Of a stretch of DNA of 64,000 nucleotides, positions 1-38,277 are shown piece by piece. Numbering within the stretch: the stretch's first letter is position 1; the number at the start of each line of letters is the position of its first letter. The translations under genes and the position numbers were made by a program. Origin of the DNA: Candidatus Latescibacterota bacterium (lineage in GTDB: Bacteria > Latescibacterota > UBA2968 > UBA8231); contig OZ220089.1 in assembly GCA_964291625.2 (NCBI GenBank), forward strand, positions 4,288,001 through 4,352,000. The letters are read 5' to 3'. A model generated the notes under the pieces. It was not told where the DNA came from and did not search any database. It saw only the letters and a program-made list of their open reading frames with translations.

Positions 1-1188
1 GCGGCGCCAGCCCTCGCCGGGCATGATGCGGCGCATGAACTGGTCGAAGAGGGGGACCGTGAAGGCGGTGTCGCCGTGGCCGGGGCTCCAGATCATGCCC
101 TTCGAGATCAGTTGGGCCCTCGCCGGCCCGAGGGAGGTGACCTTGAGACCCAAGGCCCGCGCGATGTCCCCCGAGCGATGCGGGCCGGGCCCCAGCTCCG
201 ACATGGCCCTCAGGTACCTCTTTTCCGAGGTGGTCAGGCGGTCGAACCGCACCCGGAAGAAGCCCTCGTCCAGAGCGGCGACGACTACGTTCGAGGCGCG
301 CTCGACGTCGGCGATCCCGATCGACGGGCCCGCCGCCACATCCCAGGAGTGCTTCCCCCACTCCTGAAGGAAGTACGGGTACCCGTGAGTCTCCTGAACG
401 ATGCGCTCCAGGGCGTCATCGTCGATGGTCACGCCTTCATCCTCGGCCGGCTTGACGATGGCCGTTCGGGCCGCCTCGGCTCCGAGCGGTCCGACCCGTG
501 GAAAGTCGAACAACCTCTCGGCGTATGACTTCGCCCTTCCGGTGCGGGCCCGGAGCTGCGGCAGGCCGGCTCCGACCATGACGACGGGCAACCGCCGCTG
601 GGCGGTCAGGTGCAGGGAGATGATCAGCGCCGCCAGCTCCTCCTCGTCGACGTACTGGAGCTCGTCGACGAACAGGGACAGCGCCGTCTCCGCCTCCCTG
701 GCCGCAAGACCGGCGGCCTCCAGCAACGCCTGCAGATCCATCTCGAGGTCGCCATTGTCGGCCAGGCCCGGCTCCGGCTCGAGATCGAGCCCCACCTCGA
801 TGTCCTGGTACTTCACCTTGAGAGCGGCGGCGAAGCCCGCCAGGCCCCTGAGCGCCCTGAGAGCGAGACCCTTCGCCTTCTCGTTGTTGGACAACTGGAG
901 CAGCGCCTGCCTCAACTGGGGAGCCAGCAGGGCGGGGAGAGAGCGATTATCCGGCGCCTCGACGGACAAGGTGCGGATACCGGCTGCCTGCGCGTCCACG
1001 CGCATGCTCTCGAGCAGCACGGTCTTGCCGACCCCCCTCAGGCCGACCATGAGAAGGCTCTTGGCCGGCCGGCCGAGTCTGATCCTGGCCAGCGCCACAC
1101 GGACGCTCTGGCGCAGGTCGTCCCGGCCTGCCAGCTGGGGCGGAGGCGTGCCGGCCCCGGGAGCGTAGGGGTTCCTGATCGGATCCAT
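1..1188 (-). CDS. AAA-family ATPase (AAA_16-like), 3' end runs off the window
   Basis: Not in the ORF track. Manual minus-strand translation from ATG 1188 gives MDPIRNPYAPGAGTPPPQLAGRDD...GLRGVGKT (Walker A); the same frame reads FTVPLFDQFMRR near base 1. Confidence 0.85.
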   Translation of the reverse strand, partial: MDPIRNPYAPGAGTPPPQLAGRDDLRQSVRVALARIRLGRPAKSLLMVGLRGVGKTVLLESMRVDAQAAGIRTLSVEAPDNRSLPALLAPQLRQALLQLSNNEKAKGLALRALRGLAGFAAALKVKYQDIEVGLDLEPEPGLADNGDLEMDLQALLEAAGLAAREAETALSLFVDELQYVDEEELAALIISLHLTAQRRLPVVMVGAGLPQLRARTGRAKSYAERLFDFPRVGPLGAEAARTAIVKPAEDEGVTIDDDALERIVQETHGYPYFLQEWGKHSWDVAAGPSIGIADVERASNVVVAALDEGFFRVRFDRLTTSEKRYLRAMSELGPGPHRSGDIARALGLKVTSLGPARAQLISKGMIWSPGHGDTAFTVPLFDQFMRRIMPGEGWRR

Positions 1189-1260: not shown

Positions 1261-1384
1261 CAAACTACCGGCCACAGGGAGGTGCGCCGCGTCCCTGGAG
1301 TCCCCGGAGACCCGCCCCCGCAGGAACCGCCCCTGGTTGCGGAACGTCGGCTGGCCGGGCATATTGGCCGTGAACGGAGCCGAG

Positions 1385-1762
1385 ATGAGAATCCCCCGAG
1401 CCATCGCGCTGGCAGTGCTCGTCGCGGCGCTGCCGGCCAGCAGCGTCGCCGCCGCGGCGGACTGCTCGCCGTGCGCGCTGGCGGTGGCGGCCCCCGGCTG
1501 CCACGCGCCCGCGGCGGCTGACTCCGAGCAGCTCCGGTCCGCCTGCTGCTGCGCCGCCCTGAGCTGCGCCGACGATTCCCGACCTTCCGCCGATCCCGCT
1601 CCAACCTGGCTGCCCTCCGGCCCCGGGACCTCCGCCACCCCTCCCGCGGGCCCGCCGGTCCAGGCCCTCCGCGCCGCGGACCACGAGCCTGTCGCACCAG
1701 GGCCCCCGCCCCGGGCCGCCAAGGTCCCCCTCTACGCGCTCCACGGCATCTACCTGATCTGA
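1385..1762 (+). CDS. Cys-rich, Pro-rich leader/uORF protein with signal peptide (DUF2946/CruR-like architecture)
   Basis: MRIPRAIALAVLVAALPASSVAAAA signal, CSPC, CH and CCC..SC clusters, C-terminal PPPRAAKVPLYALHGIYLI; lies directly upstream of a metal efflux operon. Confidence 0.7.
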   Translation: MRIPRAIALAVLVAALPASSVAAAADCSPCALAVAAPGCHAPAAADSEQLRSACCCAALSCADDSRPSADPAPTWLPSGPGTSATPPAGPPVQALRAADHEPVAPGPPPRAAKVPLYALHGIYLI

Positions 1763-1903
1763 TCCTTCTCCGCTCTCGCCGCGCCCGCGGGCACGGCGCA
1801 GAGCCGCATCGAGCGATGCGCTGGCCGGGCCGGCCCCTCAGGGCCAGGCCGCGTGGCCGCGCATGTTGCGTACCGGTCCGACGCCGGAAACAGGAGAAGG
1901 AGA
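1763..1903 (+). promoter_or_regulatory. Structured intergenic leader with anti-SD
   Basis: TCCTTCTCC (1763-1771) is the exact reverse complement of GGAGAAGGA (1893-1901), the SD region of cusC; a GC-rich hairpin spans 1772-1804. Confidence 0.55.
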
Positions 1904-3163
1904 ATGCACCGGAGAGCTATCTGCGCCGCGGTCGTGGCCCTGGCCGCCGCGGCGCCCGCGGAACCCCCTGAGCTGGACCTCGACCTCCTGATCGAGGAGG
2001 CCCTCACCTCGAACCTGTCGCTGCAGGTGCTGAAGCACGGCTCTGCCGCCGCCCGGTCGGCGGTCCCGGCGGCCGGGGCCCTGCCCGACCCGGGGCTGAA
2101 GGTCGAGCTGAGCAACGTCCCCTTCCGCCCCCTCGACATCGACGGCTCGCCCATGAGCGGCCGCCAGCTCATGCTCTCCCAGAAGCTGCCCTACCCGGGG
2201 AAGCGGGCGGCCCGGGAGCGCGCCGCCTCCCACGCGGCGGCCGCCGCCGAGGCCGCCCGCCAGGAGCGCGAGGCGACCGTCGTCAACCTGGTGAAGCAGG
2301 CCTGGTTCGACCTGGATCTCCTCGACCGCTCGATCGCCATCACCGGGAGGAACCGGGACCTGCTGCGGGACTTCGTGCGCATCGCCCGGACGAAGTACTC
2401 CGTGGGGCGGGTGCCGCAGCAGGATGTGCTCAAGGCCCAGGTGTCCCTGTCGAGCCTGCGCCGGCGCCTGCTGCACATGGAGGGGGAGCGGCGGCGGACG
2501 GCGGCGCGGCTCAACACCCTGCTGGACCGGGATCCCCGCGAGCCGGTGGGCCGCATCCCGGCCCGGGAGCAGACGCCCCTGGAGTTCGAGGCGGTCCGGC
2601 TGCTGGAGCTGGCCCTGGACGGGCGGCCCCTGCTCGAGGGCCTGCGCCTGGGCCGGGAGCGCTGGCGCGCCGCCGAGGAGCTGGCCGTCCTCGACCGGCG
2701 GCCCGACTTCCAGGTGAACGCCGGCTGGCGCCAGCGCGGCTTCGAGGACGATCCCGTCTCGGGCAGCGACTTCTTCTCCGTGGGGGTGATGATGACCCTG
2801 CCCGTCTACAAGGGGCGCAAGCAGGATTCCCGGATCGCCGAGGCGAGGGCGCGGGTCCGGGAGGCCGAGGCCCGCATCGAGGCCGAGATCCGCGAGCTGG
2901 CGCTGCGGATCGAGGAGCTCCACGTCGACGCCGAGACCCACCTGCGGGAGATGGCCCTCTTCCGGGACGTCATCATCCCCCAGGCCGACCAGTCCCTGGC
3001 CGCGGCGGTCGCCGGCTACCAGGTGGACGAGGTCGACTTCCTCACCCTCCTCGACAACCAGATGACCCTGCTGGAGTTCGAGATCGACTACCATCGCCAC
3101 CTGTCGCAGTACGAGAAGAGCCTGGCCCACCTCGAGTCCGTCGTCGGCCGGCGGCTCTTCTGA
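1904..3163 (+). CDS. cusC: TolC/CusC-family outer membrane efflux protein
   Basis: Signal peptide, ALPDP and SQKLPYPGKR motifs, AGYQVDEVDFLTLLD C-terminus; strong SD before ATG 1904. Confidence 0.9.
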   Translation: MHRRAICAAVVALAAAAPAEPPELDLDLLIEEALTSNLSLQVLKHGSAAARSAVPAAGALPDPGLKVELSNVPFRPLDIDGSPMSGRQLMLSQKLPYPGKRAARERAASHAAAAAEAARQEREATVVNLVKQAWFDLDLLDRSIAITGRNRDLLRDFVRIARTKYSVGRVPQQDVLKAQVSLSSLRRRLLHMEGERRRTAARLNTLLDRDPREPVGRIPAREQTPLEFEAVRLLELALDGRPLLEGLRLGRERWRAAEELAVLDRRPDFQVNAGWRQRGFEDDPVSGSDFFSVGVMMTLPVYKGRKQDSRIAEARARVREAEARIEAEIRELALRIEELHVDAETHLREMALFRDVIIPQADQSLAAAVAGYQVDEVDFLTLLDNQMTLLEFEIDYHRHLSQYEKSLAHLESVVGRRLF

Positions 3164-3179
3164 GCGCGGAGGAAAGACC

Positions 3180-4550
3180 ATGTGGAAATACGCGATCGCC
3201 GTGATCCTGTCCCTGGCCGCCGGCACCGCCTTCGGCCTCTGGCTGGGCGGCGCCGGCGCGGGGGCGGGAGCGATGCACGCCCACCAGGAAGAGGCCGACG
3301 TCCACCGCTGCCCCATGCACCCCACCGTCGTCTCCGAGGGGCCGGGAAGCTGCCCGGTCTGCGGCATGGACCTGGTGGCCGACGAGCCGGCGCCGAGCAG
3401 CGCCTCCGGCGGGGAGCGCGCCGTCGCCTACTGGCGGGCGCCGATGGACCCGTCGTACACCTCCCACGAGCCGGGCCAATCGCCCATGGGCATGGACCTG
3501 GTGCCGGTCTACGAGGACGAGCTGCAGGCCGAGGGCACGGTGACGATCGACCCGGCGACGGTGCAGAACATCGGCGTCAGGACGGCGCCGGTGGAGCGCC
3601 GGCCCCTGCACCGCACGGTGCGCACCGTGGGCCGCGTCGACTACGACGAGACGCGCATGACCGACGTCAACACCAAGATCGCCGGCTGGGTGGAGCAGCT
3701 CTTCGTCGACTACACGGGTCAGATGGTGGAGAAGGGGGAGCCCCTGCTGCAGATCTTCAGCCCGGAGCTGGTGGCCGCCCAGGAGGAGTACCTCACCGCC
3801 GTCGACTACAGCGAGCGCCTGATGGCCGGCGGCGGGGGCGAGGTCGTGACCGGGGCCCGGGACCTGCTGTCGGCGGCGCTGCAGCGGCTGCGCTACTGGG
3901 ACATCAGCGACCGCCAGATCGAGGAGCTGCGGCAGACGGGGGAGGCGCGGCGCACCATGACCGTGCACTCGCCCCAGCAGGGCACGGTGGTCCACAAGGC
4001 GGTCCTCGACGGCCAGCACATCGGCCCGGGGCAGCACCTCTACCGCATCGCCGAGCTGTCGCGGGTGTGGGTCTACGCCGACGTCTACGAGTACGAGCTG
4101 CCGTGGGTGCGGGAAGGGCAGGAGGCCGAGGTCGAGCTCTCCTACCTGCCGGGCCGGACCTTCACCGGCAAGGTCACCTACGTCTATCCCTTCCTCGAGC
4201 CGGAGACGCGGACCGTCAAGGTGCGCATGAGCTTCGCCAACCCCGAGCTGGAGCTGAAGCCGGAGATGTACGCCAACGTCACCATCCGCTCGCCCCTGCC
4301 GGCCGACAGCGTCCTCACGGTCCCGGTGCAGGCGGTGATCCACTCCGGTCCGCGCCGACTGGCCGTGATCAGCCTCGGCGAGGGCCGCTTCCAGCCCCGG
4401 GAGATCCGCGTCGGCGCCGAGGCGGAGGGCTTCTACGAGGTCCTGGAGGGCCTGCGTGAAGGGGAGCGGATCGTCACCTCGGCCCAGTTCCTCATCGACT
4501 CGGAGAGCAACCTGAAGGCGGCGGTCAGCTCCCTGGGGGAGGGGACGTGA
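3180..4550 (+). CDS. cusB: RND periplasmic adaptor, CusB family, with heavy-metal-binding repeats
   Basis: CPMHP..PGSCPVCGMDL and YWRAPMDP..SPMGMDLVPVY motifs; LKPEMYANV; AQFLIDSESNL. Confidence 0.93.
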   Translation: MWKYAIAVILSLAAGTAFGLWLGGAGAGAGAMHAHQEEADVHRCPMHPTVVSEGPGSCPVCGMDLVADEPAPSSASGGERAVAYWRAPMDPSYTSHEPGQSPMGMDLVPVYEDELQAEGTVTIDPATVQNIGVRTAPVERRPLHRTVRTVGRVDYDETRMTDVNTKIAGWVEQLFVDYTGQMVEKGEPLLQIFSPELVAAQEEYLTAVDYSERLMAGGGGEVVTGARDLLSAALQRLRYWDISDRQIEELRQTGEARRTMTVHSPQQGTVVHKAVLDGQHIGPGQHLYRIAELSRVWVYADVYEYELPWVREGQEAEVELSYLPGRTFTGKVTYVYPFLEPETRTVKVRMSFANPELELKPEMYANVTIRSPLPADSVLTVPVQAVIHSGPRRLAVISLGEGRFQPREIRVGAEAEGFYEVLEGLREGERIVTSAQFLIDSESNLKAAVSSLGEGT

Positions 4551-7500
4551 TGATCGGGCGCATCATCGAGGCCTGCGTCAACAACAAGCTGCTCACGGTG
4601 CTGGTGACCCTGCTGGCCGCCGGCGCCGGCTTCCTCGCCATGTCCGACACCCCCCTCGACGCCATCCCCGACCTGTCGGACGTGCAGGTGATCGTCCTTA
4701 CCGAGTACCCGGGGCAGGCGCCCCAGGTGGTGGAGGACCAGGTGACCTTCCCCCTGAGCACGGCGATGCTGGCCGTGCCCTACGCCAAGGCGGTGCGGGG
4801 GTACTCCTTCTTCGGCCTCTCCTTCGTCTACGTCATCTTCGAGGACGGCACCGACATGTACTGGGCGAGGAGCCGCGTCCTCGAGTACCTCAGCTTCGCC
4901 GGCGACCGCCTCCCCGAGGGGGTGCAGCCGCGGCTCGGTCCCGACGCCACCGGCGTCGGCTGGGTCTACGAGTACGCCCTCGTCGACACCAGCGGCCGCC
5001 GCGACCTCGCCGAGCTGCGCTCGATCCAGGACTGGTACCTGCGCTACGAGCTGACCAGCGTGCCCGGCGTCGCCGAGGTGGCCAGCATCGGCGGCTTCGT
5101 CAAGCAGTACCAGGTGACGGTCGACCCCAACAAGCTGCTGGCCTACGGGGTCTCGCTGCAGCAGGTGAAACGCGCCATCCAGCGCAGCAACAACGACGTC
5201 GGCGGCCGCCTCATCGAGCTGGCCGAGACCGAGTTCATGGTGCGCGGCCTCGGCTACATCCGTTCCGTCGAGGACATCCGCGAGGTGCCCGTGAGCGCCG
5301 GCCGCTCCGGCACCCCGGTGCGGGTGCGGGACATCGCCACCGTGCAGGTGGGGCCCGAGCTGCGCCGCGGCCTGGCGGAGTGGAACGGCGAGGGGGAGGT
5401 GGCCGGCGGCATCGTGGTCATGCGCTACGGCGAGAACGCCCTGGCCGTGATCGACGCCGTCAAGGCGAGGCTCGCCGAGCTGCAGGACGGCCTGCCGGAA
5501 GGGGTGGTGGTGGAGACCGCCTACGACCGCTCCGGCCTCATCCGCCGCGCCGTGGGCCACCTGCGCGAGAAGCTGGTGGAGGAGTGCCTGGTGGTGGCCG
5601 CCGTCTGCGGGCTCTTCCTGCTCCACTTCCGCAGCGCCTTCGCCGCCGTCTTCACCCTGCCCCTGGGCATCCTCGTCGCCTTCATCGTCATGTGGGGCCA
5701 GGGGATCAACGCCAACATCATGTCCCTCGGGGGGATCGCCATCGCCGTGGGGGCCATGGTCGACGCCGGTATCGTGCAGATCGAGAACGCCCACCGCCAC
5801 CTGGCGCGGGACCGGGGCCGCAAGGACCACTGGGCGATCATCGCCGCCGCCTCCAAGGAGGTGGGGCCGGCCCTGTTCTTCTCCCTCCTCATCGTCACCC
5901 TCTCCTTCCTGCCCGTCTTCACCCTGGAGGCCCAGGAAGGGCGGCTCTTCAAGCCCCTGGCCTACACCAAGACCTACGCCATGGCCGCCGCGGCCCTGCT
6001 GTCGATCACGGTGGTGCCCGTGCTCATCGGCTTCTGCCTGAAGGGGCGGGTCGTCGACGCCGACCGCAATCCGCTCAACCGGGTTCTGACGCGGGGCTAC
6101 GGGCCGGTCCTGGACTGGCTGCTGCGCCACAAGGCCGCCACCCTGGCCGCCGCCGCGGCGGTGATGTTCGTGTCGGTGTTTCCCTTCCGCAGCGTGGTGG
6201 TGGAGCGCTTCGCCGAGCGGCCCGGCAGCCTGGCGCACACGGCGCTGTCCCGCCTGCAGGGGCTCTTTCCCCTGGAGCAGATCGGCTCGGAGTTCATGCC
6301 GCCCCTGTACGAGGGGGACCTGCTCTACATGCCGACCACCCTGCCCGGGGTCTCGGTGACCAAGGCGCGGGAGCTGCTGCAGCAGACCGACCGCATCATC
6401 CGCACCTTCCCGGAGGTGGAGAACGTCTTCGGCAAGATCGGCCGCGCCGAGACCGCCACCGACCCGGCGCCCCTGTCGATGATCGAGACCACCATCACCC
6501 TGAAGCCGCAGGACCAGTGGCGGCCGGGCATGACCCCGCAGAAACTGGTGGAGGAGCTGGACCGGGCGGTGCGCTTCCCGGGGCTGACCAACGCCTGGAC
6601 GATGCCGATCAAGACGCGCATCGACATGCTCTCCACCGGCATCAAGACCCCCGTGGGCATCAAGGTAGCCGGCGACGATCTCGAGACGCTGGAGGAGGTG
6701 GGCCGGCGGATCGAGCAGGTGGTGCGGGAGATCCCGGGCACGGCCAGCGTCTACGCCGAGCGGGTCGCCGGCGGCAACTACGTCGACTTCGAGATCGACC
6801 GCGAGGAGGCCGGGCGCTACGGCCTGACGGTGGGGGACGTGCAGGAGGTGATCCTGTCGGCCATGGGCGGCATGAACATCACCCACACCGTGGAGGGCCG
6901 CGAGCGCTACCCGGTGAACCTGCGCTACGGGCGGGAGCTGCGCGACAACCTGCCCGCCCTGAGGCGGGTCCTGGTGGCCACGTCCACGGGGGCCCAGATC
7001 CCCATCGGGCAGGTCGCCGACCTGCGCATCCGCAAGGGGCCGCCCGGCATCAAGAGCGAGAACGCCCGCCTCAACGCCTGGGTCTACGTCGACATCCGCG
7101 ACGTCGACGTGGGCACCTACGTCGAGCGCGCCCGCCAGATCGTGGCCGAACGGATCGACCTGCCCCAGGGATACAGCCTGATCTGGAGCGGCCAGTACGA
7201 GTACATGGAGAGGGCCAAGGAGCGGCTGAGCCTCGTCGTGCCGGTCACCCTGGCCATCATCTTCCTGCTCCTCTTCCTCCACTTCCGCAGCGTCGTGGAG
7301 AGCCTCATCGTCATGCTCACCCTGCCCTTCGCCCTGGTGGGCGGGATCTGGCTCATCTACATCCTGGACTACAACATGAGCGTCGCCGTGGGCGTGGGTT
7401 TCATCGCCCTCGCCGGGGTCAGCGCCGAGCTCGGGGTGGTGATGCTCACCTACCTCGACCAGGCCCTGGAGGCCCGCCGCACCGAAGGCCGGCTCGAGGA

Positions 7501-7798
7501 CCGGGCCGATCTCGCCGCCGCCATCGTCGAGGGGGCGTCCCGGCGCGTGCGCCCGATCTTCATGACCGTGGGTTCGACGGTGGGCGGTCTGCTGCCGATC
7601 ATGTGGGCCACGGGCGCCGGGTCGCAGGTGATGAAGCGGATCGCCGCGCCCATGGTGGGCGGGCTGGCGACGGCTACACTTCTGGCGCTGCTGGTGTTGC
7701 CGGCCGTATATGCGCTGTGGCGTGGTTTCCAGATGCGCGGCGGCACGGAACCGACAACGGATGCACACACCCCCGAGGAAGGAGTGACAGCAGCATGA
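4547..7798 (+). CDS. cusA: CusA/SilA heavy-metal RND permease
   Basis: 1083 aa; PLDAIPDLSDVQVI, SLGGIAIAVGAMVDA, SEFMPPLYEGDLLYMP, TDPAPLSMIET, KRIAAPMVGG. Confidence 0.96.
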   Translation: MMIGRIIEACVNNKLLTVLVTLLAAGAGFLAMSDTPLDAIPDLSDVQVIVLTEYPGQAPQVVEDQVTFPLSTAMLAVPYAKAVRGYSFFGLSFVYVIFEDGTDMYWARSRVLEYLSFAGDRLPEGVQPRLGPDATGVGWVYEYALVDTSGRRDLAELRSIQDWYLRYELTSVPGVAEVASIGGFVKQYQVTVDPNKLLAYGVSLQQVKRAIQRSNNDVGGRLIELAETEFMVRGLGYIRSVEDIREVPVSAGRSGTPVRVRDIATVQVGPELRRGLAEWNGEGEVAGGIVVMRYGENALAVIDAVKARLAELQDGLPEGVVVETAYDRSGLIRRAVGHLREKLVEECLVVAAVCGLFLLHFRSAFAAVFTLPLGILVAFIVMWGQGINANIMSLGGIAIAVGAMVDAGIVQIENAHRHLARDRGRKDHWAIIAAASKEVGPALFFSLLIVTLSFLPVFTLEAQEGRLFKPLAYTKTYAMAAAALLSITVVPVLIGFCLKGRVVDADRNPLNRVLTRGYGPVLDWLLRHKAATLAAAAAVMFVSVFPFRSVVVERFAERPGSLAHTALSRLQGLFPLEQIGSEFMPPLYEGDLLYMPTTLPGVSVTKARELLQQTDRIIRTFPEVENVFGKIGRAETATDPAPLSMIETTITLKPQDQWRPGMTPQKLVEELDRAVRFPGLTNAWTMPIKTRIDMLSTGIKTPVGIKVAGDDLETLEEVGRRIEQVVREIPGTASVYAERVAGGNYVDFEIDREEAGRYGLTVGDVQEVILSAMGGMNITHTVEGRERYPVNLRYGRELRDNLPALRRVLVATSTGAQIPIGQVADLRIRKGPPGIKSENARLNAWVYVDIRDVDVGTYVERARQIVAERIDLPQGYSLIWSGQYEYMERAKERLSLVVPVTLAIIFLLLFLHFRSVVESLIVMLTLPFALVGGIWLIYILDYNMSVAVGVGFIALAGVSAELGVVMLTYLDQALEARRTEGRLEDRADLAAAIVEGASRRVRPIFMTVGSTVGGLLPIMWATGAGSQVMKRIAAPMVGGLATATLLALLVLPAVYALWRGFQMRGGTEPTTDAHTPEEGVTAA

Positions 7799-8136
7799 AA
7801 CGCCTGAAGACCCGAGGGAAAGCCGTCATCGCCGTTGCGGCGGTCGCTGCGGTCCTGGCCGTCGGCGGCTATTTCCTGCAGGGAGAGAGCCAGCCGCCTC
7901 CCCTGCCCGCGGACGGACTCGCCCTCTACCAGACCTTGCTGAGGGAGATCCCGGAGGTTGTGAGCCAGGTGCCGTGCGCCTGCTGCAACCAGAGTCTCTC
8001 CTGGTGCTACGAGGGAGGGTGTCCCCCCACCTGACGGCAGTGCAACGAAGAGGGCCGTGACGCCTTCAAGTGGCACCACGAGGGAAAGGACATCGAGGAG
8101 ATCAAGGAGCTGATCCTGGCGAAGTACTTCCATTGA
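7795..8136 (+). CDS. Probable selenoprotein, PCYCGC-motif-like membrane-anchored protein with UxxC (113 aa if UGA 8032-8034 is read as Sec)
   Basis: ATG overlaps the cusA stop; VPCACCNQSLSWCYEGGCPPT-TGA-RQCNEEGRDAFKWHHEGKDIEEIKELILAKYFH-stop, ending 17 nt before copA. Confidence 0.75.
8035..8067 (+). promoter_or_regulatory. Candidate bacterial SECIS element
   Basis: Stem GAGGGC (8050-8055) / GCCTTC (8062-8067) with loop CGTGAC; loop starts 21 nt after the UGA and has G at position 2. Confidence 0.55.
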
Positions 8137-10451: not shown

Positions 10452-12347
10452 ATGACCCGGATCGAAGCGAACGTCCCCTTTGTCGAGCCGCCCGAATGGG
10501 CCCTGCTCGAGCGCAGCCTCATGGACCTGATGGACGACGCCGTCGCCCCGGTGATGGAGCGCTACGTCCACGCCGACGGCTCGGTCATGTGGCCCACGCG
10601 GGAGGACTTCACCGGCATCGACGGTCTGGACGACGCCTACGAGAGCTTCCACAACTGGCCCCTCTTCTACCTGATGGGAGGAGGGGACCACCTGCTCGAT
10701 CACTCCCACCTCGCCTGGGAGGGGATCACCCGCCAGTTCAGCCGCTACGACACCGGCCACGGACACCCGATGGTGGTCAAGGAGTACGAGCAGGGGTACG
10801 ACTGGATGCACCAGGGGGAGGGGTACGCCTTCTTCTACAACCTTTGCCTCGCCGATCCGGGAAACGAGCGCAACGCCGAGAGGGCGAAACGTTACGCCGG
10901 GTTCTACCTCAACGAGGACCCGGAGGCGCTCAACTACGATCCGGAAAAGAGGCTCATCAAGTGCGCCCACAACGGATCGATGGGCCCGGCCTTCCGCAAC
11001 TTCGACAGGCACTACACCGTCTACCGCTATGACCAGTGGAAGCCCTGGCCCCTGCCCTTCCACGACCTGCCCGGCATCGACTCGGTCGAGGATCTCCGGA
11101 AGCCGGGCATGGAGGAGCTGATGGGGCGCACCCTCGTCGAGCGCATGGGCCGCGGCGACGTGGCCACCAACCTCGGCGCCACCACCCTCGTCACCAACAC
11201 GTACCTGTTCGGGGGCGAGGCGAAGTACCGCGACTGGGTGGTGGAGTACACGGAAAGCTGGATGGAGCGCACCCGACAGAACGGCGGCGTCATCCCCGAC
11301 AACGTCGGCCTCTCGGGGAAGGTCGGGGAGTACATCGACGGCAAGTGGTGGGGCGGCTACTACGGCTGGACCTGGCCCCACGGCTGGCACCTGATGGCCG
11401 ACGCGGTGACCGCCGCCGCCGAGAACGCGGCCCTCATGTGCCGCGACCCCGGGTACATGGAGTTCCCGCGCTCGCAGATCGACCTGCTCATGGAGCAGGG
11501 GGAGAGGCGCGGCTCCACCCTGTACGCGCCCCATCACTACCACGACAAGGGATGGGACGGGTACGCGCCCATGCACCCGGCGCCGATGACCCACATCTGG
11601 CAGATGACGATGGGCGGCGCCGACGCGGACCGGCTCGTGCAGCAGCGCAACCACGAGTCCGAGGACTGGCGGCGGGTCCGCTCCCACGGCTCCAAGCACG
11701 GCGCCGGCCACGAGGCCGCCTGGTTCGCCTGGCTGCGGGGGGAGTATCCCGGGTTCCCCCTCGACATCCTGCGCCACAACCACGCCCAGGTGCACCAGCG
11801 GCTGGCCTTCATGGGCGACGACCGCCAGGACCCGGCCACCTACGGCGACTGGTACCTCCAGGTGCGCAACCCCGTCACCGTGGAGGCGCTGCTGCAGCTG
11901 ACCATGGGAGGGCCGCTATACCTCTACAACGGCGGCCTGCAGATGGCGCGGCTGCGCTACTTCGATTGCCAGCGCCGCCGCCCCGGACTGCCGCGCGACG
12001 TCGCCGCTTTGGTGGAGGTCCTGGAGGACGATCGTGTGGTGGTGCAGCTGGTGAACCTGAGCGCCACCGAGCCGCGGGAGATGGTCGTGCAGGCCGGGGT
12101 CTTCGGGGAGCACCGCTTCACCAGTGCTTCCTGGCAGCAACGACGCCCTCTGAGCGCCGAGGAGGCCGCCGCCGGCCAGACGCACGAGGAGCAGTTCCGG
12201 GGGGTGGTCCAGGGGCAGCTGGAGGAGCGGAGGGAGGAGGTGAACGGACGGTGGTTCACGGTGGGGCTGGCGCCGGGGGCGGGGATCCGGCTGGATTTGG
12301 GGATGGAGCGGTTCGCCAACGGGCCGTCGTACTCGCTGCCTTGGTAG
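10452..12347 (+). CDS. Conserved hypothetical 631-aa protein, aromatic-rich (possible alpha/alpha-barrel lyase or hydrolase)
   Basis: Long ORF with host-like codon bias, rich in W/Y/H (DDAYESFHNW, YDWMHQGEG, WWGGYYGWTWPHGW). Confidence 0.75.
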   Translation: MTRIEANVPFVEPPEWALLERSLMDLMDDAVAPVMERYVHADGSVMWPTREDFTGIDGLDDAYESFHNWPLFYLMGGGDHLLDHSHLAWEGITRQFSRYDTGHGHPMVVKEYEQGYDWMHQGEGYAFFYNLCLADPGNERNAERAKRYAGFYLNEDPEALNYDPEKRLIKCAHNGSMGPAFRNFDRHYTVYRYDQWKPWPLPFHDLPGIDSVEDLRKPGMEELMGRTLVERMGRGDVATNLGATTLVTNTYLFGGEAKYRDWVVEYTESWMERTRQNGGVIPDNVGLSGKVGEYIDGKWWGGYYGWTWPHGWHLMADAVTAAAENAALMCRDPGYMEFPRSQIDLLMEQGERRGSTLYAPHHYHDKGWDGYAPMHPAPMTHIWQMTMGGADADRLVQQRNHESEDWRRVRSHGSKHGAGHEAAWFAWLRGEYPGFPLDILRHNHAQVHQRLAFMGDDRQDPATYGDWYLQVRNPVTVEALLQLTMGGPLYLYNGGLQMARLRYFDCQRRRPGLPRDVAALVEVLEDDRVVVQLVNLSATEPREMVVQAGVFGEHRFTSASWQQRRPLSAEEAAAGQTHEEQFRGVVQGQLEERREEVNGRWFTVGLAPGAGIRLDLGMERFANGPSYSLPW

Positions 12348-33514: not shown

Positions 33515-33925
33515 TCAGGGGGGGTTCGTACGCAGCAGGTCCATCTTTGCGAGATGGGGAACGAAGTCGCAGTACCGGGAAACCGCATAACCCTCCCGCG
33601 TCGTCGTCTCCATGAGATCACGGGACAGGACACGTATGCCGTCGCGGAGCACATGGTAGTACAGCACCGGGGGGGCCTGGTTGAGGACGAGCAGATCGAC
33701 GTCGTTGTAGTGAAGGCCGCCGATCAACACGGTCGTGAGCTCTGCCCGGTATCCGAAGGGGCTCTCTTCGACCCGGCTCTCGTCGATGTACACGGCGACG
33801 TCGATGTCGCTGTGGGGCTGCGCAACGCCCTGGGCGTGGGAGCCGAACAGGTAGGCCTCCAGAACCTCCGGGCGGGGCTCGAGCACCTTCGCGATGCGCT
33901 GGTCCAGATCTTGGCGGGGCTTCAT
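33515..33925 (-). CDS. Minimal nucleotidyltransferase (MntA antitoxin-type), possibly C-terminally truncated
   Basis: AYLFGSHAQGVAQPHSDIDVAV (GS-x10-DxD), VDLLVLNQAPP. Confidence 0.88.
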   Translation of the reverse strand: MKPRQDLDQRIAKVLEPRPEVLEAYLFGSHAQGVAQPHSDIDVAVYIDESRVEESPFGYRAELTTVLIGGLHYNDVDLLVLNQAPPVLYYHVLRDGIRVLSRDLMETTTREGYAVSRYCDFVPHLAKMDLLRTNPP

Positions 33926-33977
33926 TGTCGCTGCTCGGCGATCCGCGGGTCCGCGGCGGACCCACTGCCAAGGGAGC

Positions 33978-34388
33978 CTAAGTTGCGGCGCTCTCCTCCG
34001 TCGCCTCAAGCGCATCGACAACCTCCCGGGCCGCAATTTCCGGGCTGTCCATCACGATGTAACGCATTGACCGGAGCGGACCTGGCAGATCGCCGGCCTT
34101 CAGTTCCTTGGCCACGATGGGGATCACCCTCTTGCCCATGGCCAGGGAGGCACCTAGCTCGAAGTTGAACCAGGAGGAATTGATGCTCCCGGGACTGACG
34201 ACGAGGACTATGTACTCGCTGCTCCGTAGACCATTCTCAACCTTGTCTGCCCACGGCTCGCCCACAGCGACCTCTCGTTCAAAGGACCAGACATCCTTTC
34301 CGGCACCAAGTAGCTGGTCGACAAAGCCGCGGACCCAATCGCTGTCCGACTGCACGTGGGAAATGAAGACTCGTGGCGACTCGCTCAT
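33978..34388 (-). CDS. Stand-alone TIR domain protein (TIR_2)
   Basis: VFISH, WFNFELGA with the putative catalytic Glu, VIPIV. Confidence 0.9.
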   Translation of the reverse strand: MSESPRVFISHVQSDSDWVRGFVDQLLGAGKDVWSFEREVAVGEPWADKVENGLRSSEYIVLVVSPGSINSSWFNFELGASLAMGKRVIPIVAKELKAGDLPGPLRSMRYIVMDSPEIAAREVVDALEATEESAAT

Positions 34389-34825
34389 TGTTCCCCCACA
34401 GTGGGTTCAGGTGCTGACCTGATTCGTTCCTCGAGTTGCTCCAAGTACGTTTCTATATCGTTCAGTTGGATGAGATTCCTTCTCTTCAGCAGGGTCGGTA
34501 CGTTTGAGTTCGATTGCAGATCTTCAGGGGTGAGGCCGTGCAGCACGCCTACGATCGGAATTTGACGGCCCCAGGCAGCTCCGATCTCGGCCCAGACGTA
34601 CGGCCTGGTCAGCGACCACGGCGTCAGGAGGACCAGCAGTTCCGTTGCGGTGGCGAGAGCCTTGAGAATCCTCTCCTCGAAGTCTTCGCTCACCGCGACA
34701 TCTGTCTCGTCGAGAAAGGTAGAGGCTCCGGCCGCCTCGATCCCCTTGGCAATCTGCCTTGCGACCCAGGTATCGGTGCTGCTGTGGCTGAGGAACACAA
34801 GCCAGGTCGGACCGGACTCGGGCAA
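34385..34825 (-). CDS. Stand-alone TIR domain protein (TIR_2)
   Basis: VFLSHSSTD, FLDE, YVWAEIGAAW with the putative catalytic Glu; its stop overlaps the next ATG. Confidence 0.9.
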   Translation of the reverse strand: MPESGPTWLVFLSHSSTDTWVARQIAKGIEAAGASTFLDETDVAVSEDFEERILKALATATELLVLLTPWSLTRPYVWAEIGAAWGRQIPIVGVLHGLTPEDLQSNSNVPTLLKRRNLIQLNDIETYLEQLEERIRSAPEPTVGEQ

Positions 34826-34914
34826 GTCTGTCGTCTCACTCGTAGAAGGTAGTTGAAATTACAGGGGGACTAAGGCAAGTTCAAGGGGGCTGAAACCGAG
34901 GATTGGACCGCGGA

Positions 34915-37900
34915 ATGACGACCAGAACGACGGCCCGCCTGACGGCGGCGGTCGAGCACTACCTGACCGACCTGCACCGCATCCGCGCCTCCGGCAGCGC
35001 CACGGGAGAGCGCTCTAGCTACGGTCCGCTGGCCAACCTGCTCAACGCCGTCGGCGGCACCCTCAAGCCCAAGGTGTTCTGCGTGGGCGAGCTGGCCGAC
35101 CAGGGGGCAGGCCACCCCGACTTCGGGCTCTACTCGTCGCGGCAGGTGCAGAAGGGGCAGCCCCGCCCGGGGCAGACACCGGAGCGCGGCGTGGTCGAGG
35201 TGAAGTCGGCTGACGACGACGCCTGGCTGACCGCGCACAGCAGACAGGTCAGCCGCTACTGGGACCGCTACAGTCTCGTGCTGGTGACCAACACCCGCGA
35301 CTTCGTGCTCCTCGGGGAGGACTCGGCGCGCCTTCCCGCCAAGCTCGAGACCTTCCGGCTGGCGGAGAGCGCCGACGAGTTCGAGCAGCGCCTGGAGACG
35401 CCCCACGCCTTCGCCCGCGATGTCGGCGCGGGCTTGGCCGAATACCTGGGCCGGGCGCTGGCGCACCGGGCGGCCCTGTCCGAGCCGAGGGATCTCGCCT
35501 GGCTGCTGGCGTCGTACGCCCGCGACGGGCTGGCGCGGGTCGAGGCCGCCGGCGACGCCCAGCCCCTGAAGGCGGTGCGCTCCGCTCTCGAGGAGGCCCT
35601 GGGGGTCCGCTTCGAGGGCCCCCGCGGCGAGGCCTTCTTCCGGTCGACCCTGGTACAGACCCTGTTCTATGGCCTGTTCTCCGCCTGGGTGCTGTGGGCC
35701 CGGCAAGCCAAGCAGGGAGACCGTTTCGACTGGCGCACCTCGGTCTGGCACCTGCGCGCCCCCGTGTTGCGTGCGCTCTTCCATCAACTTTCGGGCCCCG
35801 GCCGCCTGAAGCACCTCGACCTCGTCGAGGTGATGGACTGGACCGCCGCGGCCCTCGACCGGGTGGACCGGCCGGCCTTCTTCTCCCGCTTCAACGAGGG
35901 CGAGGCCGTGCCCTACTTCTACGAGCCCTTCCTCCAAGCCTTCGACCCCGGCCTGCGCAAGCAGCTCGGCGTCTGGTACACGCCATCCGAAGTGGTGCGA
36001 TACATGGTAGCCCGCGTCGACCGGGCGCTGCGCGACGACCTCGGCATCGCCGACGGGCTGGCGGCCGACAACGTCTACGTCCTCGACCCCTGCTGCGGCA
36101 CCGGCGCCTACCTGGCCGAGGTACTGCGCCGCATCGCCGCCAACCTACAAGGCCGCGGCCTCGGCGCCCTCGCCGGCGCTCGGGTGAAGCAGGCGGCCCT
36201 GGAGCGGGTCTTCGGCTTCGAGATCATGCCCGCCCCCTTTGTCGTCGCCCACCTGCAGGTCGGCCTCACCCTGCAGGATCTCGACGCCCCGCTGGCGGAG
36301 GAGGGAGAGGAGCGGGCCACCGTCTTCCTCACCAACGCCCTGACCGGATGGGAGCCGAAGGCCGACAAGCCCCTGCCCTTCCCGGAGTTGGAGGAGGAAC
36401 GGGACCGCGCCGAGCGCGTGAAGCGGGACACGCCGATCCTCGTGATCCTCGGCAATCCACCCTACAACGGATTTGCCGGTATGGCGGTGGAAGAGGAGCG
36501 GGAGCTGTCCGAAGCCTACCGCACGACGAGGCGGGTACGCCGGCCCGAAGGCCAGGGGCTGAACGATCTCTACGTGCGGTTCTTCCGCATGGCGGAAAGG
36601 CGCATCGCCGAAAGGACGGGCCAGGGGGTGGTCTGCTTCATCTCCAACTACTCCTGGCTGGACGGCCTGTCCTTCACCGGCATGCGGGAGCGTTACCTGG
36701 AGGCGTTCGACGCGATCCGCATCGACAATCTGCACGGAGACCGCATCATCTCAGAATATGCGCCTGATGGTCGCACCAGTGAGACTGTCTTCGCCCTGCC
36801 AGGCCAATCCCCGGGTATCAAAGTCGGCACCAGCATCGCCTTGCTTGCCAAGACTGGCAACCCCGTCGACCCATCGAAAGGCGGGCACATCCTATATAGG
36901 GATTTCCATCAGGCAAGAGCCGAGGAGAGACGGGCAGCGTTGTTGGAGAGTCTCGATAGTCCTCAACTGGATGCCGGCTACACAACCTTGGAAATGAATC
37001 TTCGCCTCGGCCTGCCATTCAGGCCCGCGACGGTCAGCGAGGACTGGTTCGGCTGGCCGGCCGTGCCCGACCTGTTTCCAGTTTCCTTTCCAGGCGTCAA
37101 GACCAGCCGCGATGGATTCCTCGTCGATACCGATCTCGACCGACTCAAGGCACGGATTGGCGAGTACTACGACCCAACCTTGAGCCACGACGACATCGCG
37201 CGTCGCTATCCAGGTGTGATGAAGAGCACGGCGCGGTATGACGCCCGTGCAGTGCGGGATGCGCTGCTCGCACGCGGTGGACCGATTGACACCGGTTTCG
37301 TCCGCCACGCTTATAGACCCCTAGACAATCGATGGATCTATTGGGAGGCCGACACTCAGTTGCTCGACAGGAACCGTGCGGACTACAAGCCGCACGTGTT
37401 CGAGGGCAATCTATGGCTTGGCTCGAGCAAACGAGAAGTCCACGAAGAGTTCTCCAACGGCATCTTGACGTATCATCTCGGAAACTGGAAGCTCGGCAAC
37501 TGGGGGATTCACTTCTTTCCTCTATGGCTCCGAGACGAGGGCTTTGGAGTCGGCAACGAGGCCCAACGGCGTCCGAACATCTCTGGCGCCGCTCAAGGAT
37601 ACCTACAGCGTCTCGGAGCGAGCGTAGAGGATCTGTTTCACCACGTCCTCGTCACCGTCCACCATCCCGACTACCGCAAAGCCAACGCAGGGGCGCTCCG
37701 CATGGAATGGCCGCGCATCCCGCTGCCTGGCTGGGCCGATGGCGAAACCTCGGGCGCGGCCGAGGCGCTTGCCGAATCGGCCGCGAGGGGCCGTGGACTG
37801 GCCCGCCTCCTCGACCCGGACACGCCGGTACCCGGCGTCACCTACGGTGAGTTGCGGCCGGGATCCGCCTCCCTCGCCGTACCCGCCACCACCGCCGGGT

Positions 37901-38277
37901 GCAACATGACCAGCGACGACTTCGCGGTCACCGCCGGGTGGGGCCACTTCGGAACAGGCGATGTCGTCATGCCGGGCAAGGGCCGCATCGTCGAGCGCGA
38001 CTACACCCCTTCGGAACGCGCCGCCCTCGGCGACGCAATACCTACGCTCGGCGTCAAGACGCTCGACGTGTACCTGAATGACCGGGCCTTCTGGAGCAAC
38101 GTCCCCGCCGGCATCTGGGACTACAAACTCGGCGGCTACCAAGTCCTCAAGAAATGGCTGTCCTACCGAGAACGCGTTGTCCTTGGGCGAAGTCTGTCGG
38201 CGGAGGAAGTGCTGTACTTTGCAGAAACCGCTAGGAGGGTGGCGCGGATAAGGCTGTCAAGCCGATGCTTGGGATAG
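34915..38277 (+). CDS. Single-chain restriction-modification enzyme (nuclease + N6-adenine MTase + type ISP-like specificity domain, no helicase)
   Basis: N-terminal PDF...VEVK (PD-(D/E)xK-like), GVWYTP, LDPCCGTG (motif I), GNPPY (motif IV), AYRPLD, LGGYQVLKKWLSYR. Confidence 0.88.
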   Translation: MTTRTTARLTAAVEHYLTDLHRIRASGSATGERSSYGPLANLLNAVGGTLKPKVFCVGELADQGAGHPDFGLYSSRQVQKGQPRPGQTPERGVVEVKSADDDAWLTAHSRQVSRYWDRYSLVLVTNTRDFVLLGEDSARLPAKLETFRLAESADEFEQRLETPHAFARDVGAGLAEYLGRALAHRAALSEPRDLAWLLASYARDGLARVEAAGDAQPLKAVRSALEEALGVRFEGPRGEAFFRSTLVQTLFYGLFSAWVLWARQAKQGDRFDWRTSVWHLRAPVLRALFHQLSGPGRLKHLDLVEVMDWTAAALDRVDRPAFFSRFNEGEAVPYFYEPFLQAFDPGLRKQLGVWYTPSEVVRYMVARVDRALRDDLGIADGLAADNVYVLDPCCGTGAYLAEVLRRIAANLQGRGLGALAGARVKQAALERVFGFEIMPAPFVVAHLQVGLTLQDLDAPLAEEGEERATVFLTNALTGWEPKADKPLPFPELEEERDRAERVKRDTPILVILGNPPYNGFAGMAVEEERELSEAYRTTRRVRRPEGQGLNDLYVRFFRMAERRIAERTGQGVVCFISNYSWLDGLSFTGMRERYLEAFDAIRIDNLHGDRIISEYAPDGRTSETVFALPGQSPGIKVGTSIALLAKTGNPVDPSKGGHILYRDFHQARAEERRAALLESLDSPQLDAGYTTLEMNLRLGLPFRPATVSEDWFGWPAVPDLFPVSFPGVKTSRDGFLVDTDLDRLKARIGEYYDPTLSHDDIARRYPGVMKSTARYDARAVRDALLARGGPIDTGFVRHAYRPLDNRWIYWEADTQLLDRNRADYKPHVFEGNLWLGSSKREVHEEFSNGILTYHLGNWKLGNWGIHFFPLWLRDEGFGVGNEAQRRPNISGAAQGYLQRLGASVEDLFHHVLVTVHHPDYRKANAGALRMEWPRIPLPGWADGETSGAAEALAESAARGRGLARLLDPDTPVPGVTYGELRPGSASLAVPATTAGCNMTSDDFAVTAGWGHFGTGDVVMPGKGRIVERDYTPSERAALGDAIPTLGVKTLDVYLNDRAFWSNVPAGIWDYKLGGYQVLKKWLSYRERVVLGRSLSAEEVLYFAETARRVARIRLSSRCLG

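Follow-up and report, generated by a model that had tools for sequence, protein, structure and literature searches.

A cysteine-rich leader frame followed by an anti-Shine-Dalgarno sequence upstream of cusCBA: a candidate metal-responsive translational switch

To our knowledge, CutF and CruR are the only metal-sensing leaders of the kind considered here that have been studied so far. CutF, encoded in the cutFOG operon of Rhodobacter capsulatus, is described as a protein that must be translated and exported by the Sec system and that depends on a Cys motif and a Pro-rich C-terminus; in the presence of copper it stalls and melts a stem-loop in which an anti-Shine-Dalgarno (anti-SD) sequence masks cutO's Shine-Dalgarno (SD) sequence, and copper thereby switches cutO on (Ozturk et al., 2023, PMC9973294). 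The stall was reported to occur at a PPP motif, overriding elongation factor P (EF-P; 10.1101/2025.02.05.636593). CruR, an upstream open reading frame (uORF) of the DUF2946 family with CXXC and RAPP motifs, controls a TonB-dependent transporter by Rho-dependent termination, and copper relieves its arrest (Roy et al., 2022, PMC9426467). Here we analyse a Cys-rich leader open reading frame (ORF) that precedes a cusCBA-like operon in a stretch of 64,000 nucleotides from a Candidatus Latescibacterota bacterium (contig OZ220089.1, positions 4,288,001 to 4,352,000; in the following, the window). An original prediction, made from the letters of this stretch, had proposed the leader as a metal-sensing translational switch for cusCBA and had named the CruR/DUF2946 uORFs as its precedent. 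They remain a precedent for a Cys-motif uORF that regulates copper genes, but the closest described system is CutF rather than CruR (PMC9973294). The exporter target, which the prediction had taken as a possible sign of a different class, is not new, because genes of the OEP/CusC type were already reported as the commonest downstream neighbours in a census of 5,334 CutF-like proteins (PMC9973294).

The leader ORF occupies positions 1385 to 1762 of the forward strand and encodes 125 amino acids followed by TGA. Retranslation agreed in every particular with what had been predicted, from the length and the CxxC, CH and CCC clusters to the Pro-rich spacer and the quoted C-terminal end. The protein carries the motifs CSPC, GCH and CCC...C, a Pro/Ala-rich middle part and the C-terminal sequence PPPRAAKVPLYALHGIYLI; by inspection, its nearly invariant N-terminus has a basic n-region (R2, R5), with a hydrophobic core of 13 residues and AAA ahead of D26. 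The GC content of the three codon positions is 0.76/0.69/0.89. A word-indexed search returned 23 relatives of full length together with a truncated fragment; when 1.84 billion representatives were searched exhaustively, only four clusters reached E ≤ 0.001, and after a profile search the family comprised 29 proteins at E ≤ 0.1, including the window's own protein and the fragment. The full-length relatives (n = 27) have 125–148 amino acids and diverge down to ~40% identity with the frame kept, and counted from the conserved MRI start their length is 125–128 amino acids. Just one relative is named, as a 'hypothetical protein' of a Gemmatimonadaceae metagenome-assembled genome (MAG). At the DNA level, we compared the window with six related loci (L001–L006) that were obtained from one scan of genome contigs and are labelled as Candidatus Latescibacterota MAGs (five) or a Gemmatimonadaceae MAG (one); the family is confined to MAGs that bear one of these two labels. 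These seven DNA sequences cover 6 of the 27 full-length relatives, the other 21, including the most distant one (P0026), lying outside the set.

Conservation within the family is concentrated in three parts of the protein. The first 22 residues, belonging to the putative signal peptide, are almost invariant even where overall identity falls to 40–50%, and all eight residues of the Cys/His cluster (C27, C30, C39, H40, C54, C55, C56 and C61) are invariant or nearly so in the family alignment, with C27-x-x-C30, a CXXC motif like that conserved in the DUF2946/CruR family, invariant throughout. Residues 63–113 form the most variable part (pN, the nonsynonymous component, 0.34), and the last Cys nonetheless stays 63–66 amino acids away from the C-terminus in 28/28 sequences despite the divergent spacer sequence. 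The tail that the original prediction had written as PP..LY.LH..YLI is retained family-wide as P-L-Y-x-L-H-x-x-Y-L-I-stop, with P115, L119 and the terminal YLI in 28/28 sequences and H120 in 27/28. As the prediction had also stated, the motif is not RAPP, which is absent from the last 22 residues of all 28 sequences, the nearest approach being RAPR in two of them. DUF2946 did not match the leader (P0001) at E ≤ 1 or any of 25 family members at E ≤ 10. The leader has no genuine match in Pfam, which also gave none for the 25 members, or in NCBIfam (there none of any kind at E ≤ 1); weak matches to Myticin-prepro (best E = 0.0038, below the cut-off) reflect Cys-rich composition. A PDB profile search returned 0 matches. 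The look-alikes found in a protein atlas are unnamed clusters, and the nearest named families, DUF8199, DUF6769 and DUF6660, are unsupported by Pfam and serve as leads only. Overall, these results show the leader ORF to be a genuine, conserved gene whose family is small. As an observation apart, a hairpin GCUGGCAG...CUGCCGGC is predicted within the signal-peptide codons (1408–1440, forward strand) and is identical in 7/7 loci; the synonymous component pS is 0.16 in this region, below the rest of the leader ORF (0.29–0.47). An RNA-level constraint may act there, and as the stem never varies, it is uninformative for covariation.

The most distinctive feature of the locus lies directly behind the leader. 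The 9 nucleotides after the stop codon, TCCTTCTCC, are the exact complement of the SD region of cusC, GGAGAAGGA (Table 1), as had been predicted, and within the 64-kb window this 9-mer has only these two matches, the second one as its reverse complement. About 0.61 matches are expected by chance, and at least two were found in 9/100 shuffles, none of them in this geometry. In 6/6 related loci, and thus in 7/7 with the window, a TGA is immediately followed by a 9-nt anti-SD complementary to the SD of the following OEP gene, and all nine base pairs of this clamp are kept in all seven sequences. The fifth pair has undergone a compensatory change, being U:A in four loci and C:G in three, where L004–L006 carry TCCTCCTCC with GGAGGAGGA in place of TCCTTCTCC with GGAGAAGGA. 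The original prediction had named loss of the anti-SD/SD pairing in homologues as the observation that would speak against it; the pairing is present in 7/7 loci, with one double-sided change. According to RNAalifold and pair counts, the clamp is extended across an 11-nt bulge by pairing of the cusC AUG with CAU in codons 121–122 of the leader, with C:G and U:A pairs in 7/7 loci each and the middle pair A:U in four and G:U in three. For the test of the 13-pair structure, i.e. the 9-bp clamp and a 4-pair extension (cusC AUG with CAU or CGU), pairing was found in 91/91 cells, compared with 54–71% when the 3' partner was slid by 1–3 columns. The extension is weaker than the main helix, with a probability of being unpaired, P(unpaired), of 0.14–0.73 for the cusC AUG.

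A spurious high-GC ORF combined with a fortuitous complementarity would be the most trivial explanation for this arrangement; the DNA here does open many long frames on both strands, and a 9-mer can recur in 64 kb as often as the shuffles indicate. We regard such an artefact as extremely improbable, since the 27 full-length relatives keep frame, length and motifs down to ~40% identity, the clamp occurs in 7/7 loci with a compensatory change, and the anti-SD abuts the stop codon in every locus.

Folding places the cusC SD in a nearly closed state. The original prediction had expected GC-rich hairpins between the two 9-mers to bring them together, and this was borne out by the minimum-free-energy fold of 1740–1920, in which the 9-mers are paired around several GC-rich hairpins (–94.6 kcal/mol, z = –3.39, an energy equalled by 1/200 shuffles). 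Partition-function folding gave a probability of 0.88–1.00 for each clamp pair at all seven loci. Mean P(unpaired) of the cusC SD is 0.003 in the window and 0.003–0.016 over the seven loci, which makes it the least accessible of 18 in the window (0.003 vs 0.068–0.814 for 17 other SD-bearing starts, assigned heuristically and folded in the same context). The leader's own SD is open, with a mean P(unpaired) of 0.742 in the 9-nt window 1371–1379, and its CGGA is kept in 7/7 loci. Between the leader stop and the cusC ATG lie 121–160 nt in the seven loci; four predicted pairs of the intergenic domain show double-sided changes (a fifth such pair is the one in the clamp), and in L003 the interior is remodelled, with the first two hairpins missing and different ones present, around a constant closing helix. 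A search of positions 1100–2100 against Rfam 15 gave a chance-level microRNA match (E = 0.44) inside cusC as the sole match, and the idea that the intergenic hairpins are a dispersed repeat was discarded, as no second copy exists within the window. Taken together, the coupling of cusC translation to the end of the leader ORF via the clamp is well supported, and we consider it highly probable.

The position of the anti-SD relative to the stop codon is consistent with a role of the terminating ribosome. In toeprints, the 3' edge of the ribosome lies at about +15/16 from the P-site codon. When Ile125 is in the P site and UGA in the A site, the anti-SD falls at +7 to +15, counted from the first base of the last sense codon. 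By this geometry, a ribosome positioned in this way would cover precisely these nine nucleotides and hold them inside the mRNA channel. Full opening of the clamp would coincide with termination, because a ribosome two codons earlier covers just four of the nine anti-SD nucleotides. Forcing a ribosome-sized stretch at the leader stop to be single-stranded costs 14–19 kcal/mol. In the terminating complex, Y-L-I is at the peptidyl-transferase centre and P115–H120 in the upper tunnel. By analogy with the 45-residue argument made for CutF (PMC9973294), the Cys cluster, 64–98 residues back, should be far enough away to clear the ribosome tunnel and the Sec channel. The PPP at residues 107–109 was rejected as stall site, as more than 35 nt separate it from the anti-SD downstream, which places it beyond the footprint, and as PP is absent in 2/28 sequences.

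These features suggest that the leader is a cis-acting, CutF-like translational switch of cusCBA with a metal-dependent arrest of the exported nascent chain at its tail, a reading to which we give about an even chance. In the off state, the cusC SD would be locked in the 9-bp long-range helix and the AUG partly locked, and cusC would not be translated; the clamp would be open only while a ribosome sits on the last codons and the stop of the leader. The leader would be exported co-translationally via Sec through its nearly invariant signal peptide, and its Cys/His cluster would have newly reached the periplasm by the time the ribosome is at the stop codon. If the cluster then bound Cu(I) or Ag(I), the nascent chain might experience a changed pulling or folding force, the tail would be arrested for longer at termination, and the prolonged arrest would keep the clamp open, allowing a second ribosome to load on cusC. 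A stalled ribosome may also protect the C-rich leader RNA from Rho. That metal acts in the ON direction is expected by analogy with CutF.

Most likely, the leader is a divergent relative in function of the CutF and CruR copper-sensing leaders. With CutF, as far as it is described (PMC9973294), it shares a length below 150 amino acids, a putative Sec signal peptide, the Cys motif and the position at the head of a copper-detoxification operon, as well as a downstream stem in which an anti-SD masks the SD belonging to the next gene; CutF acts in cis via its own translation, which is expected here as well. The differences concern nearly every part in detail. CutF is a DUF2946 member, whereas none of the 25 scanned members of the leader family matched DUF2946; its metal motif is CxxxC, compared with seven Cys and a His in the leader; its C-terminal motif is an EF-P-dependent PPP, compared with the hydrophobic tail ending at the stop codon; its RNA element is a local stem-loop in a short intergenic region, whereas the leader anti-SD abuts the stop and pairs across 121–160 nt of structured RNA; and its target is a multicopper oxidase, not an RND (resistance-nodulation-division) outer-membrane factor (PMC9973294). 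Of the features used to describe CutF-like proteins, the leader shows the small size (125–128 amino acids), an OEP gene 121–160 nt from the stop in 7/7 loci, the Cys/His motif and the anti-SD stem. PP within the last 15 residues, which is the defining rule of the published CutF-like set, occurs in 0/28 sequences, and the published filter would therefore have excluded this family (PMC9973294).

With respect to arrest at a stop codon, the nearest parallels are found among secretion monitors. SecM, VemP, MifM and the stop-codon stallers share with the leader, as it is interpreted here, an N-terminal export signal, a length-constrained spacer, a C-terminal arrest element and an SD-masking stem that is opened by the stalled ribosome (PMC10987492). 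Some of them stall with the stop codon in the A site, as the geometry of the leader requires, for which NSP-stop, NAP-stop and DGMK-stop are described examples (Fujiwara et al., 2024, PMC10987492). These peptides differ from the leader in that they report Sec or YidC activity, precede secA, secDF or yidC and have no metal ligands, and their motifs end in Pro or Lys and arrest has been demonstrated experimentally, whereas arrest of the leader is suggested by sequence. YLI-stop is present in 28/28 family sequences, with TGA in 7/7 loci, and is unlike the published motifs (PMC10987492). We would only tentatively go further and propose that the tail with UGA constitutes a new proline-independent termination-arrest motif, that the seven-Cys periplasmic sensor and a fixed 64-residue ruler convert extracytoplasmic Cu/Ag into clamp opening, and that, in a mostly uncultured lineage, an RND efflux operon relies on this as its main metal switch, in which case an unrelated peptide family would have invented the CutF principle independently.

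Long-distance pairing that hides a ribosome-binding site can also operate with translation as its only input. In RNA phages, the replicase ribosome-binding site is masked by pairing with a distant stretch of RNA, and this pairing is melted when the coat gene is translated; this coupling differs from the leader in having no exported sensor peptide and no conserved C-terminal motif. By such plain translational coupling without any sensing, the clamp could tie cusC to every ribosome that passes the leader stop and so fix the order or ratio of the products, and the leader would be a stable periplasmic Cys-rich metal-binding or accessory protein of the CzcI or CusF kind. We consider this rather unlikely, although the arrival of a ribosome at the stop codon is indeed all that the clamp needs, the eight conserved metal-ligand residues and the putative signal peptide suit a secreted metal-binding protein, the operon has no cusF gene, the hydrophobic conserved C-terminus could be a recognition or sorting tag, and the ratio of nonsynonymous to synonymous changes (pN/pS) of the leader is close to that of cusC. 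Small exported Cys/His proteins encoded directly upstream of czcCBA, cusCBA, silCBA or copA (CzcI, CopL, 'CusD' and 'SilD') match the leader by description and are suspected regulators, and CzcI is without a proline motif (PMC9973294). On the other hand, an AlphaFold2 model built with the family alignment as input had a mean predicted local distance difference test score (pLDDT) of 51.5 and a predicted template modelling score (pTM) of 0.19, i.e. no confident fold, and in the spacer the length but not the sequence is kept, with the strictest conservation in the last three residues at the stop codon. Constitutive linkage across 121–160 nt would also be inefficient and without obvious purpose, because a 9-bp GC-rich clamp with pair probabilities of ~1.0 would re-close fast after normal termination. 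In the CutF precedent, the protein is described as being degraded and acting in cis only (PMC9973294).

A third explanation places the main output at the level of transcription, in an attenuation of the CruR or TnaC type, in which the C-rich 3' part of the leader loads Rho, a ribosome held at the tail blocks it, release leads to termination in the intergenic region or early cusC, and the clamp merely reinforces polarity. C exceeds G (Table 1) across the last two thirds of the leader ORF, at its 3' side, and into the beginning of the intergenic region, in similar form in all seven loci, and the same signature marked the Rho-utilisation (rut) site in cruR (PMC9426467). A Rho component as in CruR is thus possible, in line with the long intergenic region, which is 162 nt in cruR (PMC9426467), and with the result that a terminator scan called no intrinsic terminator. 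The likeness to CruR (Bordetella pertussis bp2923) further includes a Cys-motif uORF in first position of a copper-related operon and a conserved C-terminal motif proposed as arrest peptide. CruR differs in combining CXXC with RAPP, in Rho-dependent termination with copper switching the target OFF, in a dispensable export signal and in a TonB-dependent importer as target, and an anti-SD clamp is not part of its description (PMC9426467). As the main output, Rho-dependent attenuation appears improbable to us, because the intergenic RNA is highly structured and hence unfavourable for Rho and because exact, covarying complementarity to the SD would be superfluous for a pure Rho mechanism; moreover, the C-richness is no independent evidence, since it follows from the Pro and Ala codons. 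Rho attenuation and a clamp switch are not mutually exclusive and can coexist.

Several observations weigh against the CutF-like switch and have to be set beside its attractions. Export, arrest and metal response of the family members are steps that we infer. At the presumed stall position, the tail lacks Pro, and it is unlike any known arrest motif; a PP does occur 16–20 residues from the C-terminus in 26/28 sequences, being absent in 2/28. Seven conserved Cys and one His exceed a minimal sensor and would also suit a real periplasmic metal-binding protein. The pN/pS values (leader 0.33–0.75, cusC 0.24–0.47) do not discriminate the leader from an ordinary gene, and extreme GC at third codon positions (GC3) depresses pS. 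The clamp covariation amounts to one substitution event in a single clade among seven sequences and its score was reached in 15/500 shuffles, so that it is supportive but thin. With a ribosome footprint at the stop codon, P(unpaired) of the SD rises to 0.22–0.41, i.e. the SD is only partly freed, because the C-rich leader sequence can re-pair with it.

Finally, transcriptional control probably exists as well, from a promoter-like block of 45 nt upstream of the leader. It lies at about 3935–3985 in L001–L006, and the sequence further upstream is unalignable. The block can be read in two ways, either as extracytoplasmic function (ECF)-like, GGAACC (1323–1328) N15/16 CGTC (1345–1348), or as weakly sigma-70-like, TTGCGG (1337–1342) N17 CATATT (1360–1365), which across the loci becomes TTGCGG-N17-[CT]AT[AG]TT. 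The pattern occurs once in the window and its core once in each of 5/6 loci, L001 having a one-base variant. A consensus promoter scan of the forward strand did not call the block, and no sigma or regulator gene was seen near it. The original prediction had remarked that the window contains no CusRS, CueR or CsoR gene, and indeed no such domains were found by Pfam among ~55 window ORFs (ORFs below 70 amino acids and the region ~38.2–39.8 kb lay outside the scan). As support for a leader-based switch this absence is weak, however, because the invariant block could be served by a factor encoded elsewhere.

The principle that an exported leader with a Cys motif frees a masked SD is already established, with efflux-operon contexts included at the bioinformatic level (PMC9973294). 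As judged from the sequences, what is new here is a leader outside DUF2946, without RAPP or a C-terminal PP, that combines a hydrophobic/aromatic tail ending at the stop codon with a long-range clamp. If the CutF-like reading is true, trans-membrane metal sensing by a nascent exported leader is not bound to the DUF2946 fold or to proline/RAPP stalling, and a different phylum has realised the same logic with another peptide, here to control an RND copper/silver exporter. The few known stop-codon arrest sequences would gain a new member, and the leader with about 140 nt would provide a compact, portable, cis-acting metal-responsive translational switch. For annotation, this means that wherever a similar Cys-rich 'hypothetical protein' precedes a metal operon, the RNA 3' of its gene deserves inspection as well, and that rule sets demanding PP near the C-terminus will miss such leaders.

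Table 1. Positions of the features discussed, counted from the first nucleotide of the window.
Feature	Positions	Strand	Basis or remark
Conserved promoter-like block, 45 nt	1321–1365	+	most positions invariant in 7/7 loci
Leader's own SD, GGAG	1376–1379	+	5 nt 5' of leader ATG; read from sequence
Leader signal peptide, residues 1–25	1385–1459	+	assigned by inspection
Leader Cys/His cluster, C27 C30 C39 H40 C54–56 C61	1463–1567	+	translation and alignment
C>G bubble	1485–1802	+	C 0.44–0.56 vs G 0.22–0.35, 78-nt windows
Leader spacer, variable, Pro/Ala-rich		+	between Cys/His cluster and tail
Leader tail P115–I125, conserved	1727–1759	+	protein ends in PPPRAAKVPLYALHGIYLI
CAU pairing with cusC AUG, codons 121–122	1747–1749	+	RNAalifold and pair counts
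Leader stop codon TGA	1760–1762	+	TGA in 7/7 loci
Anti-SD TCCTTCTCC	1763–1771	+	directly 3' of leader TGA; exact complement of cusC SD region
Structured GC-rich intergenic domain	1772–1892	+	folding; local hairpins enclosed by clamp
cusC SD region GGAGAAGGA	1893–1901	+	reverse complement of TCCTTCTCC; cusC ATG at 1904–1906
cusC-like outer-membrane factor (OEP), clamp target	1904–3163	+	Pfam OEP, E = 7.7e-49
cusB-like adaptor with heavy-metal-binding domains (HMBD)	3180–4550	+	Pfam, NCBIfam
cusA-like RND pump	4547–7798	+	Pfam, NCBIfam
Nucleotidyltransferase	33515–34036	–	phage-defence-like cluster
Two TIR-domain ORFs	33978–34388, 34385–34825	–	phage-defence-like cluster
Type ISP-like restriction-modification enzyme	34903–38277	+	phage-defence-like cluster

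The order of leader, OEP gene and CusB-like gene is shared by the window and all loci, and the upstream neighbours differ; an OEP gene follows the leader in 6/6 loci, as identified by Pfam for L001 and L003–L006 and by the aligned start for L002. In the window, the operon continues past cusA with a small Cys-rich ORF, a P-type ATPase and a 631-amino-acid protein. The small ORF (7795–8136, forward strand), between cusA and the P-type ATPase gene, contains an in-frame TGA at 8032–8034, and read through as U it encodes 113 amino acids with an N-terminal membrane or signal segment and the motif PCACC...C...GGCPPT-U-RQC. The NCBIfam model NF041379, 'CYCXC family (seleno)protein', matches it across the TGA (E = 9.1e-10, 38.5 bits, compared with a curated cut-off of 90), no SECIS-type (selenocysteine insertion sequence) match was found in Rfam, and the local fold is ordinary (z = –0.30). 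It is thus a candidate selenoprotein in the copper island. Its part up to the TGA (7795–8034) was considered as a second CutF-like leader before the P-type ATPase gene and rejected, as read-through of its TGA gives a CYCXC-family (seleno)protein and as the RNA behind it shows no unusual structure. The 631-amino-acid ORF (10452–12347, forward strand), directly after the P-type ATPase gene, has a coding-type GC3 of 0.94 and no Pfam match, and may be part of the same metal island. On the other side, a divergent AAA_16/STAND-like ATPase gene adjoins the leader in the window (1–1188, reverse strand) and in L001 (2579–3769, reverse strand), both by Pfam; in L002, an ORF (2616–3806, reverse strand) is likened to the ATPase gene by its size and position only, and the more distant loci are without it. 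A near-consensus sigma-70 promoter, TTGACA-17-CATAAT (1225–1197, reverse strand), is directed at the ATPase gene and is placed downstream of where its longest ORF begins (ATG at 1188); the gene may therefore start further inside this ORF, or the promoter match may have arisen by chance. Farther downstream, a phage-defence-like cluster extends over 33515–38277 on both strands and comprises the TIR-domain, nucleotidyltransferase and Type ISP-like ORFs listed in Table 1.

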